NCBI GenBank assembly: GCA_964542475.1
Contig: CAZIUL010000014.1
Location: forward strand, 2,756-66,755
Length of the DNA: 64,000 nucleotides
Origin: an uncultured Phycisphaerales bacterium
GTDB lineage: Bacteria; Planctomycetota; B15-G4; CAYZWU01
Direction of reading: 5' to 3'
Below, piece by piece: positions 7,666-41,852 of the stretch; position 1 is the stretch's first letter, and every line of letters begins with the position of its first letter. A program made the position numbers and the translations under genes. The notes beneath the pieces are model-generated. The model was not told where the DNA came from, did not search any database, and was given only the letters and a program-made list of their open reading frames with translations.

Positions 7666-7841
7666 CCCGCTTATTTCATTCTCTTTGTCGCGAGGTGTCG
7701 TAAACTGTGTTGTGGCAAGGCGCATGCCAGGAGACGACCGCAGGCCTGTTCCTACAGGTTGAGGATCGTCTCCTGGCATGAAACGCAGCCACAGCGCAGT
7801 TTACGGTGCCGCAGCAGAAGAGGATGAAATATGCGGGTTAA
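7662..7841 (+). mobile_element. MITE family 1, full copy (172 bp, 7666-7837) with TTAA target duplication
   Basis: Reverse orientation relative to 1826-2006. The left TTAA supplies the TAA stop of the 5737-7665 gene. Confidence 0.9.
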
Positions 7842-7860
7842 CGTGCAAAAAACCACTCCC

Positions 7861-9597
7861 ATGAAACGGTTCTCAACAGCGCTTGCTTTCCTCCCGCGGC
7901 ACAAGCGTTTTCTCCTGGTCGGGCTCCTCGCCGTGATCCTGACGGTGAGCTTCGACCTGGGCTCCTCACTCGTTGTAAGGCACGGCATCAACCGGTTCAA
8001 AGAAGGGATCACCAGGGAGGCTCTGCTCGGGCTCACAGGCGTGATCGTCGCCTTTGCCGTGCTCAAGAGCATCTCCCGCTACCTCATGCGCACCTGCATC
8101 ATGGGTGCGGCGCGCCGGGTGGAAACGAAGTTGAGATCCGCCTATTTCGACAAACTGAAACATCAGTCTCAATCGTACTTTCAGAAAACCAAAACCGGGG
8201 ACCTGATCTCAAGGTGCAACTCGGACATCGAATCCGTTTGCATGTTCCTTGGCATGGGACTAATGCTGGGAACCCGCACCGTGCTGATGCTTCCGCTGGC
8301 GCTCGGGGTGCTTGCCTTTCTGAACATCAAGCTTGCGCTGTACGTCTCGATTCCGCTCGCGGGGATTTGTCTCACTGTCGGCGCGCTCTCGCCGTTCATA
8401 CGCAGGCATGCCCTGAAAAGCCAGGAACGGCTGGCCGACATCTCCACAATAGCGCAGGAAAACTTCAACGGCATCCGGATCGTCAAGGGCTACGTGTGCG
8501 AGGATACGTTCGTGCACAGGTTCGAAACCCTCGGGCGCGCCTACATGGACTCGAACATGAGGCTCACAAGAGTACGCGGATTGACGCTCACCCTGATCCA
8601 TGCGGTCAAGGACCTCGGCCTTCTTCTCATCATCATGGCGGGCGGGGCCGACCTCATCCGGGGAGAGCTGAGCACCGGGGATTTCTTTCTCTTCATCGAT
8701 TACCTGCAGCGCCTGTTCTGGCCGATGATAGCGCTCGGCTGGCTGATCGCCATGTACCACCGGGCAGGCGTCTCCATGAACAGGATCAACGAAGTCATCG
8801 AAGCCAGCCCCGACATCAGCGACCCATCCACCCCTGTCAGCCCGCAAGAAGAGGCATGCTCAATCGAGTTCGAAAACGTCAGCCTCTCGTACAACGGAAA
8901 GAAGGCGCTGGATGGCATCGCGCTCAAGATACAGGCGGGCAAAACATGCGCTGTCACGGGAAGGACCGGGTCAGGAAAATCAACACTCCTGAAGCTCGTG
9001 GTCAGGCTCGTCGACCCATCCGAAGGGCGGGTCGTTGTGCGCGGATGCGACACGTCGAAACTCAGGCTCAAAGAGCTTAGAACCCTGGTTGGTTACGTGC
9101 CCCAGGAAGCGTTTCTCTTTTCGGATACGCTGAAAAACAACATCGAGTTCGGAAGCCACAACCCGCATCCCGAGGATGCCGAACATGCAGCCGATCTCGC
9201 CGGGCTCGGGGCTGACCTTCTGCGGCGCGGAGAAGGGCTATCGCAGGAAGTGGGCGAGAGGGGCATCATCCTTTCGGGCGGCCAGCGTCAGAGGGTCACG
9301 CTGGCAAGGGCGCTGATCATGAAACCGGAGGTGCTGCTTCTCGACGATTGTTTTTCAGCGGTGGACACATCCACCGAAAAGGAGCTGCTCGAAAACCTGA
9401 AAACAACAAGGAAAGGCCGAACCACGGTCATGGTCTCCCTTCGCATCGCCTCCATCCGGGATGCGGACCTGATCGTTTTTATGGAGGATGGCCGGATCAC
9501 AGAGACAGGAACCCACGATGAGCTCATGGAGATGAAGGGAAGCTACTTTTCTCTCCACAAGCAGCAGATGATGGAACAGGAGCTGAACGGTTTTTAA
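7861..9597 (+). CDS. ABC exporter, fused permease/ATPase, subunit with degenerate catalytic residues
   Basis: Multi-TM domain, Walker A GRTGSGKS, signature LSGGQRQR, Walker B LLLDD (Glu replaced by Asp), switch His replaced by Leu. The ATG at 7831 lies inside the MITE, so 7861 is the preferred start. Confidence 0.9.
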   Translation: MKRFSTALAFLPRHKRFLLVGLLAVILTVSFDLGSSLVVRHGINRFKEGITREALLGLTGVIVAFAVLKSISRYLMRTCIMGAARRVETKLRSAYFDKLKHQSQSYFQKTKTGDLISRCNSDIESVCMFLGMGLMLGTRTVLMLPLALGVLAFLNIKLALYVSIPLAGICLTVGALSPFIRRHALKSQERLADISTIAQENFNGIRIVKGYVCEDTFVHRFETLGRAYMDSNMRLTRVRGLTLTLIHAVKDLGLLLIIMAGGADLIRGELSTGDFFLFIDYLQRLFWPMIALGWLIAMYHRAGVSMNRINEVIEASPDISDPSTPVSPQEEACSIEFENVSLSYNGKKALDGIALKIQAGKTCAVTGRTGSGKSTLLKLVVRLVDPSEGRVVVRGCDTSKLRLKELRTLVGYVPQEAFLFSDTLKNNIEFGSHNPHPEDAEHAADLAGLGADLLRRGEGLSQEVGERGIILSGGQRQRVTLARALIMKPEVLLLDDCFSAVDTSTEKELLENLKTTRKGRTTVMVSLRIASIRDADLIVFMEDGRITETGTHDELMEMKGSYFSLHKQQMMEQELNGF

Positions 9598-40524: not shown

Positions 40525-40614
40525 ACGCCGCGGAAGAGCCGGGCTGGAGCCTGGCGTTCCGAAGGGATCGGGGAGTGCCGGGCGTCACACCCGGGGGGCC
40601 GTGAGCGCCGGGGG

Positions 40615-41852
40615 TTAAACGCTTTCGCCGCTCTCCTGCTTTTCTGTTGAAAGCCCATGCACGCAAACACCCAGCTTTTCGGCAAGCGCTGTAACACGTT
40701 CGTTGTCAGGGGACAGCTCCACGGCTTCTCGGATGAACCGGCGCGCCTCCTGCGTGTCATCTCCTTCCAAACAAAGCTCTGCCAGCTTGATCCTTGTATT
40801 GAGTGCGTCCGGAACCAGCGAGGCCTCTTTTGTGTAGAAGCTGTTTCATAACCTGCTTCGTAGCGAGACCGAGCGAAAGTTGGGCCAGCAAGGATCGAAT
40901 GCGAAAACGAACGGAGGCGGCCTGGTAAGGCCGTTGAGTACGTTTTTGCTTGAGGACGCAGCTGGCACGACTTGCAGCCGGTCGGAGCAGAAGGAGGTTA
41001 TGAAACAGCTTCTAGTATGATATCGCCTTCTCCCTATCACCCAATCTAATGCACAACTCTCCAAGCCGATCCAGCACCTCGGGTTTTCCCGGGAAGCCCT
41101 GTTCTTCCCTTTCAAGAAACTCCGAAGCCTCCTTGTTTTTTCCGAGCTGCATGCGTCCTGGCAGCTTCGTATGCGCTCCATTCGGCATCAGGCACCTCTT
41201 CCATCCATTCCAGGATTGCCAGGAACGCTGTCGCCGGGCGGTTGTTATCGAGCAGGAAATGGATCATCTGCCTGTGCGCCTTCGAATCAAAAGGAAAGCG
41301 TGAGAGCTCCTGCCGGAAGTACGCCAATGCTTCATAGAACCTTCCCGTGACTTTTTGTGCGTGGGCAAGCCTGAGCGCGGCGTGTCCCGGCAGGGGTTTC
41401 TGATAGTCGATGGCACTGCCGAAACGGTCGATCCCGAGCTTGGGAAGCACGCCCATCACACGAGCCAGCTCAAGCGCATACACGATCAGCACACTGCTCC
41501 TTTTCGTGTTGTCAGCGCGATAGCTCAGCGAATCCGCGGTGCAAAGAATCACTCCCCTGTACCCGTTGGCAACAATGGACTCGATCTCCTGTTTGCCGAT
41601 GTTGACAGAGTCCTGCCCTGAAAAAACAAAAGTGTATGATTCGTTCCAGCTCTTCAGCCTGTCGGACTCGGGCGCGAGCGCAGCGATGGTTCCCTCCTCA
41701 GCCAGAAGATCAAAACGGGCTTCAGGCTTTTCTTTACAAGCGGCTTCCAGGAAGTCATCCAACAGTTCCGGAAGGCGCTCGCTGACGATCAGGTACCTAC
41801 CCCTGCTCTTGACAAAATCCCACAGAAGATGTTCGTCAAATGTAAACGCCAT
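40615..41852 (-). pseudogene. TPR protein gene disrupted by a frameshift (about 41153) and a MITE insertion
   Basis: 233 codons, then a TPR continues in a shifted frame (MQLGKNKEASEFLE...GDREKAISY). Removing 40837-41014 rejoins it in frame to YTKEASLVPDALNTRIKLAELCLE...ESV* ending at 40615. Confidence 0.85.
40835..41014 (+). mobile_element. MITE 2 (176 bp, 40837-41012) with TA target duplication
   Basis: Perfect 18-bp TIR GAAGCTGTTTCATAACCT, TA on both sides. In-silico excision restores the host reading frame. Confidence 0.92.

Follow-up and report, generated by a model that had tools for sequence, protein, structure and literature searches.

The locus considered here raises the question of why three types of miniature inverted-repeat transposable elements (MITEs) with different ends should carry the same four short motifs in the same order. 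It lies in a 64-kb stretch of DNA (64,000 nucleotides, hereafter the window; positions 2,756 to 66,755 of the forward strand of contig CAZIUL010000014.1) from the assembly GCA_964542475.1 of an uncultured Phycisphaerales bacterium, which comprises 4.87 Mb in 121 contigs with a GC content of 55.5% and a completeness of 91%. We found that the motifs are strands of internal loops in a much larger structure: apart from tips of 17-20 nt, the whole 140-175 nt element is a single rod-like hairpin, the helices of which turn over completely in sequence and vary in length while remaining paired, and the fold of which is selected on only one strand, namely that bearing the motif CAAGG. The elements constitute a superfamily of non-autonomous DDE transposons, i.e., MITEs, that is both old and widely distributed.

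A search of the window for the string CAAGG-N(10-40)-GTTGAG-N(5-35)-ACGCAG returned five matches against an expectation of 0.01, a count reached in none of 100 shuffles. Three of these lie exactly where the first-pass annotation had read the string in one representative of each type (hereafter T1, T2 and T3), all of them on the forward strand; the other two, both on the reverse strand, are further T1 cores (Table 1). A similar pattern applied to the whole genome gave 136 matches, namely 108 of T1, 17 of T3, 3 of T2 and a few unclassified ones that look like chance occurrences; with a slightly wider classification rule the three types number 111, 17 and 3, respectively. A fuzzy version of the pattern that allowed one mismatch per motif was swamped by chance, with 919 of its 1220 matches unclassified, and was dropped. 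Overall, the genome holds approximately 130 dispersed copies of 139-174 bp, which are spread across many contigs and contain no gene.

All three types fold as one long hairpin. Since MAFFT placed the inner loop of T3 wrongly when all the types were aligned jointly, a covariance model was first built from T1 alone, then used to align T2 and T3 structurally, and finally rebuilt as the model R2. In an alignment of 31 sequences from about 20 families (A7), 94.2% of the cells are paired, as against 60.7% in shuffled alignments (none of 500 reaches the observed value) and 29-46% when the strands are slid, and 23 of the 25 pairs have changed on both sides; this alignment was fitted to the covariance model and is accordingly biased towards it. 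A second alignment (A9), of 11 full-length T3-like elements from 9 genomes, was produced free of any model with MAFFT and RNAalifold. It yields 51 pairs across the whole element, 35 of them compensatory, with 93.8% of the cells paired against 76.5% in the shuffled versions, none of 500 shuffles reaching any of five measures. The sequences are related, so that the shuffle counts are not to be read as probabilities; the slid controls (34-47%) agree with them. The extent of the turnover can be appreciated from the 15-bp helix P2, which is wholly replaced between genomes, reading CATGTCAGGAGACGA in the source genome (G000), CATCGCGCGATTCGA in G003, CAGTGGTCCGGCCGA in G023 and CGGGGGGCCGCTCGA in G024. 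Thus, the claim that the helices differ in their letters among the types and still pair holds for the three types and for their relatives alike, and the covariation in a larger alignment on which the first-pass annotation had staked its case is present in both A7 and A9. Together with the strand asymmetry described below, these alignments support a conserved single-strand fold maintained by compensatory change. When representative elements were folded with their flanks, the rod was not obtained in 5 of the 24.

The four motifs that had been read earlier are indeed present, and they prove to be the strands of two internal loops; a third loop, closer to the ends, had been missed. In minimum free energy (MFE) folds, the outer loop is built from the strands GCGAGG and CCG-N-AGC, the middle loop from CAAGG and ACGCAG, and the inner loop from C-CG-N-AGG-C and G-YYGAGG-A, the unpaired letters being GA/GCA, AA/GCA and GCA/GA, respectively. 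Thus, the common thread connecting all the loops is a single 2x3 motif, in which 5'-C-R-A-G (GA or AA) faces 5'-C-G-N-A-G (G-N-A), the inner loop being the same motif turned round. In the T1 copy at 7666 this inner loop leaves GCA unpaired opposite GA, and the adjoining GG and TT form two G.U pairs. A strict regular expression parsed 35 of 40 aligned cores. In these, the 5' strand of the middle loop is CAAGG in 27, CGAGG in 6 and CTAGG in 2, and its 3' strand is ACGCAG in 21 and another ACGNNG in 14; the 5' strand of the inner loop is CGCAGG in 15, CGGAGG in 15, CGTAGG in 2 and something else in 3, and its 3' strand is TTGAGGA in 17, TCGAGGA in 12, CCGAGGA in 3 and something else in 3. T2-like elements from other classes (G055 and G057) bear up to four or five 2x3 loops. 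Counts based on folds are lower, with both orientations of the loop present in 15 of 24 elements and at least three loops in 7. Judging from its letters, the 2x3 loop could form two sheared G.A-type pairs plus one bulged base. The distance between the middle and inner loops is about 9 bp in T3, 15 in T2 and 20 in T1; given this varying spacing, any protein reading the loops would take them one at a time. We also considered whether the bulged base N of the inner loop changes in concert with that of the outer one, an idea that was rejected upon inspection by eye, which revealed both C/T and C/C combinations among the T3 copies.

Selection on the CAAGG strand is apparent from both the stability and the composition of the helices. 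Across 24 elements from 22 genomes this strand is more stable than its complement in every case, with a mean difference of -18.6 kcal/mol under RNA parameters, and it features 162 G.U pairs against nine A.C 1x1 mismatches. As the model could favor copies with G.U pairs, the 48-nt outer arms, which it never covered, were counted separately: in 21 of the 24 elements (the other three were dropped as their flank is cut by a contig or locus end) there are 55 G.U pairs to 5 A.C, and the top strand is the stabler one in 17 of the 21. Similarly, helix P2 shows 27 G.U to 4 A.C in the 31-sequence alignment; the GG facing TT beside the inner loop is converted to G-C pairs in relatives (with TC or CC on the facing strand); and the T1 consensus includes seven G.U pairs, among them those of the self-pairing GGUGCC/GGUGCC. 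The suggestion of the first-pass annotation that many stem mismatches read as G-U wobbles on the CAAGG strand is therefore borne out well beyond the copies from which it was drawn.

The mobile nature of the elements is evident from their boundaries. T1 displays inverted tips (CCCGCTTATTTCAT.. and ..ATGAAATATGCGGG), as do T2 and T3. The 4-bp flanks of T1 are identical in 73 of 133 rows and differ by one mismatch in 38 more, with a central TA in 112 of the 133; those of T3 are identical in 13 of 18 rows, with a central TA in all 18; and those of T2 show one mismatch in all 8 rows, which count the same 3 elements more than once. The TA-centered flanks seen genome-wide include TTAG, TTAA, CTAG, CTAA and ATAA. 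Hence, the notion that the types differ in their target sites is not upheld, all three being flanked by 4-bp duplications centered on TA. The tips do differ, as had been claimed, only less so than claimed, with TTTCATA common to the T1 and T2 ends. Further inward, the left arm of every type bears CTTCG..GCGAGG at 17-18 nt from its tip and the 3' arm bears CCG-N-AGC, and all three agree in their outer helices, outer loop and element length. The homology thus extends beyond the core to the whole elements: the proposal of a separable core module carried in different shells finds no support, the whole architecture being common to T1, T2 and T3, which look like diverged members of one MITE superfamily with changed tips. 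Contigs from four DNA sequencing runs of one marine-metagenome study stop at the elements, and none was seen to span an empty site cleanly; one of these runs may be the source of the DNA. Joints inside 11586-11757, which skip 83 and 111 nt, most likely represent other copies or short forms. A blastn search of a plasmid collection with T1 and T3 gave no match.

The T1- and T2-type ends are the ends of IS1380-family insertion sequences (ISs). A relative (G004) bears a 1615-bp IS (L056) with CCCGGACATTTCA tips, the 451-aa transposase of which matches NF033539, 'IS1380 family transposase' (E 7e-130), and PF13701 (DDE_Tnp_1_4; E 1.7e-171). Its tips are those of the T1-like MITEs in two other genomes (G003 and G001), the first 13-17 nt being in common. 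Three more IS1380-type elements in relatives (L065, L067 and L068) display CCCGC.. or CCCCCG.. tips and CTAG, TTAG or CTAA flanks. The T3 ends matched none of the IS loci searched. In PMC5718144, IS1380-like elements are given as the prokaryotic counterpart of piggyBac, a kinship that fits the TA-centered 4-bp target. Past about 17 nt from the tips, the IS sequence is unlike the MITE interior. A search of 16 transposase loci with the covariance model, with filters off, recovered nothing significant; the best match (16.9 bits, E 0.038) is itself a diverged T3-like MITE beside an IS in another genome (G011). A loose regular expression for the core halves at IS ends gave scattered matches only. 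As the IS interiors differ past about 17 nt and yield no model match, these comparisons indicate that simple deletion from these IS copies did not give rise to the interior of the MITEs. Two candidates for a parent IS in the source genome were rejected: the sole long T1 tip pair (on C63, 1460 bp apart) consists of two remnants around membrane-protein genes, and the only PF01609 gene (on C18) is without related tips. In another genome (G015), among 100 of 124 matches, T3-type tips occur as pairs about 155 bp apart or singly, and no parent IS was found with them.

The reach of the superfamily was explored with R2, which matches 148 of 150 candidates scored in the source genome and 136 of 150 scored in G015. 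At E <= 1e-3, 9 of 20 relatives have matches; at E <= 1e-5, so do 14 of 41 further genomes from the class, the 42 genomes of which all belong to one order and five families; and at E <= 1e-6, 10 genomes in a 151-genome sample of the phylum match, 7 of them outside the order. The matches in relatives are complete MITEs with T1-, T2- or T3-like tips and with helix letters that are different throughout. Hence, the model retrieves many families rather than only near-identical copies of the first MITE, the latter being the outcome that the first-pass annotation had regarded as fatal to its proposal. The diverged T3-like MITE of G011 (L066, 3052-3216, reverse strand), which has CAGCCCGTTGGAGAAGT tips and CTAG flanks and is separated by about 250 nt from a gene for an IS1380-family transposase, was missed by the genome-wide model searches; therefore, the true range of the family is wider than these tallies. 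Among the individual arrangements, one genome (G164, C201:19065-19522) features three model matches in tandem on one strand, about 180 nt apart, that form an array, and another (L029, in G012 C126) has two close but diverged cores with a longer apical stem at 862-938 and 1171-1246, which adjoin an apparent tRNA gene on the opposite strand. Many contigs of relatives, among them G015, G026 and G132, start or stop beside cores, so that much of the fragmentation of these metagenome-assembled genomes is due to the elements; for instance, contigs begin or end a few bases from a core at C61:5-95 and C109:6-96 of G026 and at C6:22-89 of G015.

T1 has also given rise to short forms, of which the source genome contains 17 copies of 61 bp, 4 of 73 bp and 2 of 51 bp, with further ones of 66 and 81 bp. 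These retain only the tips and the outer loop. Both arms of T1 contain the 7-nt direct repeat GGTGCCG, and slippage at this repeat could repeatedly produce the 61-bp form by loss of the hairpin center.

Table 1. Elements, short derivatives and loop strands located in the 64-kb window (positions are those of the window)
Feature	Position	Strand	Details
T1 MITE	1830..2002	-	173 bp; TTAA either side; core 1879-1951
T1 MITE	7666..7837	+	172 bp; CCCGC...GCGGG ends; core 7716-7788
TTAA duplication of the 7666-7837 T1 copy	7662-7665 and 7838-7841		
Outer 2x3 loop, 5' strand GCGAGG	7688..7693	+	faces CCGCAGC 7810-7816; MFE fold: GA unpaired opposite GCA
Middle loop, 5' strand CAAGG	7716..7720	+	faces ACGCAG 7783-7788
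Inner (turned-round) loop, 5' strand CCGCAGGC	7736..7743	+	faces GTTGAGGA 7756-7763
T1 MITE	11586..11757	-	172 bp; CTAA either side; core 11635-11707
T1 short form	12929..13001	+	73 bp; only ends and outer loop kept
T3 MITE, degenerate	33239..33377	+	139 bp; left end GAGTCCGTTGAAAAAGT; core 33291-33345; 1 of 17 genome copies
T2 MITE	40838..41011	+	174 bp; AAGCTGTTTCATAACC ends; GTAG/CTAG flanks; core 40889-40961; 1 of 3 genome copies
T1 remnant, 3' half	43623..43689	+	
T1 short form	50754..50814	-	61 bp; opposite orientation; site of a weak mir-3173 Rfam match (E 1.7)

Within the window, the T3 copy has lost part of its 3' outer arm by deletion. The T1 copy at 7666-7837 stands between a radical-SAM gene and an ABC-transporter gene and is inserted exactly at the stop codon of the former, the TAA of which (7663-7665) falls within the TTAA duplication. 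The longest open reading frame (ORF) of the ABC-transporter gene begins at an ATG in the right tip of this MITE (7831-7833), a location that makes the start doubtful; this ATG is probably not the true start of the gene. The radical-SAM gene (5737-7665, forward strand) codes for a B12-binding protein of the TIGR03960 family, the closest relatives found for which come from metagenome-assembled genomes labelled Planctomycetota or Brocadiia, with 44-52% identity in 22 of 23 loci and 23% in one. On the reverse strand, 17203-21585 codes for a 1460-aa protein with acyl-CoA dehydratase activase domains. Taken together, this gene content (the activase-domain protein and TIGR03960) points to an anaerobe.

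We next asked whether any known system accounts for these elements. Searches of the window with Rfam 15 gave no match at the gathering score and five at E values up to 10, none on an element core; the fold thus does not coincide with a catalogued RNA family of that release, a coincidence that the first-pass annotation had named as removing its novelty. One of these weak matches, at 38881-38930 (forward strand), involves the model of the twister-sister ribozyme and reaches 20.9 bits (E 6.8), where the gathering score is 34; the loop letters (GCAAGGCC..GGCGCUCAUG) are complete, the inner stems are much shortened, and the match lies inside a 599-aa ORF (38725-40524) that matches no NCBIfam family. 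It is probably a chance match. The attC sites of integrons are strand-specific folded single strands, with conservation of structure and of a few unpaired positions, and have the core sites RYYYAAC (R'') and GTTRRRY (R'). The elements described here resemble them in having a strand-specific fold in which structure and unpaired positions are conserved over sequence, and differ in their inverted ends, target duplications and dispersed copies. As a candidate attC site the motif was rejected: GTTGAGG departs from GTTRRRY in its final base, relatives have GTCGAGG or GCCGAGG in its place, and the RYYYAAC partner is absent. Kink-turns, in which a 3-nt bulge is followed by G.A and A.G pairs, and other purine-rich loops with sheared G.A pairs serve as protein sites, and the present loop is likewise purine-rich with a possible sheared G.A. 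It is nevertheless not a kink-turn, being a 2x3 loop (GA facing GNA) in which G and A are separated by just one extra base and a 3-nt bulge is absent.

Turning to repeats, REP elements are without target duplications, and a REPIN is a short GC-rich pair of REPs; a REP/REPIN origin was therefore ruled out by the duplications found here. The Correia/nemis, ERIC and REP-type repeats are not known to us to have a conserved internal-loop motif that recurs, or to covary on a phylum-wide scale. Like the elements at hand, these are dispersed intergenic palindromes that form long RNA hairpins, according to the review PMC3184786. A precedent described in the same review is bcr1 of the Bacillus cereus group, a transcribed, dispersed element of about 155 bp with flanking direct repeats, the fold of which is preserved in RNA by compensatory changes (PMC3184786). 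Compared by description rather than by sequence, our elements resemble it in size, direct repeats, dispersal and compensatory changes that keep the fold. In contrast, bcr1 is presented there as cruciform-like, with two stem-loops, 5-bp repeats and transcription, whereas here we have one rod with a repeated 2x3 loop, a 4-bp TA-centered target and IS1380-type tips. The likeness to the IS1380-family ISs themselves is limited to the first 13-17 nt, CCCGGACATTTCA.. (as in the T1-like MITEs and the G004 IS), and the 4-bp flanks of the CTAG/TTAG/TTAA type; they differ in the MITE interior and in the T3-type tips, which are matched to no IS. Among the papers listed on IS1380 MITEs and on compensatory structure in MITEs, the titles and abstract openings show no like element. 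Thus, bcr1 already provides an example of a structured MITE whose RNA fold is kept by compensatory changes (PMC3184786); what is new, as far as Rfam 15 and this literature show and ISfinder comparisons aside, is this family, its link to IS1380-type ends, the repeated loop motif and its range.

What, then, might the fold be for? We favor, at roughly even chances, the explanation that it is a single-stranded nucleic acid read by a protein, RNA rather than single-stranded DNA, which serves the persistence or spread of the element. Under this proposal the rod would act in single-stranded form, with the repeated loops as points of protein contact; it would be kept for the element's own persistence or spread, rather than for cis regulation of neighbors; and its active form would more probably be a transcript than a DNA strand. 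RNA is ranked above single-stranded DNA because G.U pairs are about as free as Watson-Crick pairs while A.C is nearly excluded. A more specific conjecture, which we advance quite tentatively, is that the rod is a structure-specific recognition element, such that an IS1380/piggyBac-type transposase or a host factor reads the three to five G.A-type 2x3 loops on one folded strand, be it RNA or single-stranded DNA. On this view, a folded single strand would be as necessary to a DDE-type miniature transposon as it is to attC sites, and the 'handle' would have been retained throughout a phylum by MITEs whose tips are unrelated.

Several observations weigh against this proposal of a protein-read RNA. 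The strand asymmetry persists under DNA parameters in all 24 elements (mean -7.5 kcal/mol) and hence argues for a single-stranded form without separating RNA from single-stranded DNA. At one P2 pair, A.C occurs in 27 of 127 T1 copies, and among the variant positions of T1 the G.T type leads the A.C type by only about 8 to 3. The core would be dispensable for transposition if the core-less 61-bp forms moved by themselves, although slippage at GGTGCCG could also remake this form without any such movement. According to a crude gene prediction, in which 3558 ORFs account for 90% of the genome, T1 lies between co-directional genes 23 times in sense and 19 times in antisense, alongside 28 copies between convergent and 26 between divergent genes. 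This even orientation makes a cis role in host mRNAs unlikely; there is no sign of a role tied to the transcription of neighbors, nor of a replication-linked bias via gene direction. Selection for an RNA acting in trans does not sit easily with selection that operates on individual copies as they transpose, and we know of no partner protein. The sequencing runs that contain DNA of this organism are the four DNA runs mentioned above, with no RNA run among them. Finally, the 121 contigs of the 91% complete source genome encode no IS1380-family transposase (PF13701), and a parent IS for the T3-type tips (SAGNCCGTNGNNNAAGT) was not found in nine PF01609 loci of five relatives.

The chief competitor to an RNA is that the same fold works as single-stranded DNA, for example in the lagging-strand template or after transfer, as a cis signal for excision, integration or repair akin to integron attC sites or the ends of IS200/IS605. 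We regard this as possible, though on the doubtful side. It would make the fold a cis feature of the moving copy itself, in keeping with selection on the element, and would be independent of host transcription; moreover, the one-strand fold, asymmetric with DNA parameters throughout, and the coupling of conserved unpaired letters to unconserved helix sequence are also as in attC. Against this, the ends and target duplications imply a DDE enzyme of the IS1380/piggyBac kind, the known mechanism of which operates on duplex DNA; the roughly tenfold excess of G.T over A.C is, in our judgement, more than expected from DNA mismatch energetics; and the gene-direction count (23:19) is unbiased, though genes usually follow replication. 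Were the DNA to be read only as a duplex, the arms would be imperfect inverted repeats and the 'loops' end-specific protein sites, comparable to the unequal sub-terminal repeats of piggyBac, the ends of which are asymmetric. The top strand does feature one CGCAG in the left arm against two in the right, with RAGG distributed in reverse, and PMC5718144 treats IS1380 as the prokaryotic relative of piggyBac. Nonetheless, we consider this unlikely, for it accounts neither for 15-bp helices replaced letter for letter yet still complementary, nor for the 55-to-5 lead of G.T over A.C in the arms, nor for each site always facing its partner site, and the autonomous IS1380 elements with the same tips are without these motifs beside their ends.

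Alternatively, the rod could be a functionless legacy of one palindromic ancestor, with the arms kept alike by repair or template switching and the loops being purine mismatches that escape correction. Palindromic MITEs are common according to PMC3184786; palindrome-shortening deletions are indeed observed among our elements (51, 61, 66, 73 and 81 bp), and a function for the fold is deduced rather than witnessed. We nevertheless view such a legacy as quite improbable, as the loop letters and positions are kept across the phylum while every helix letter changes, correction between the arms would purge G.T just like A.C, yet G.T is abundant, and the inner loop is always the turned one. Lastly, the loose likeness of CAAGG to the consensus letters of the twister-sister self-cleaving ribozyme, which has CAAG in an internal loop, might hint at membership in a described RNA class. 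This is very improbable indeed: the Rfam 15 families match none of the five copies, even when E values up to 10 are admitted in place of the gathering score, the single weak match (E 6.8) being the one at 38881-38930, away from the elements.

These elements depart from the usual treatment of MITEs as inert deletion products in which the tips alone are functional. Here, it is the tips that vary, while an interior fold with a repeated loop motif and a one-strand signature, not derived from the matching ISs, persists across the phylum. Even if the fold were functionless, the maintenance of palindromes could be studied in this family without complication. If, as in our preferred explanation, the loops are protein contacts, the hundreds of covarying copies would allow a new nucleic-acid recognition motif to be defined and would provide a test of the part played by single-stranded folds in the life of DDE-type elements; the family would further constitute an uncatalogued entry for libraries such as Rfam and ISfinder, and might thereby improve the annotation of uncultured marine bacteria.

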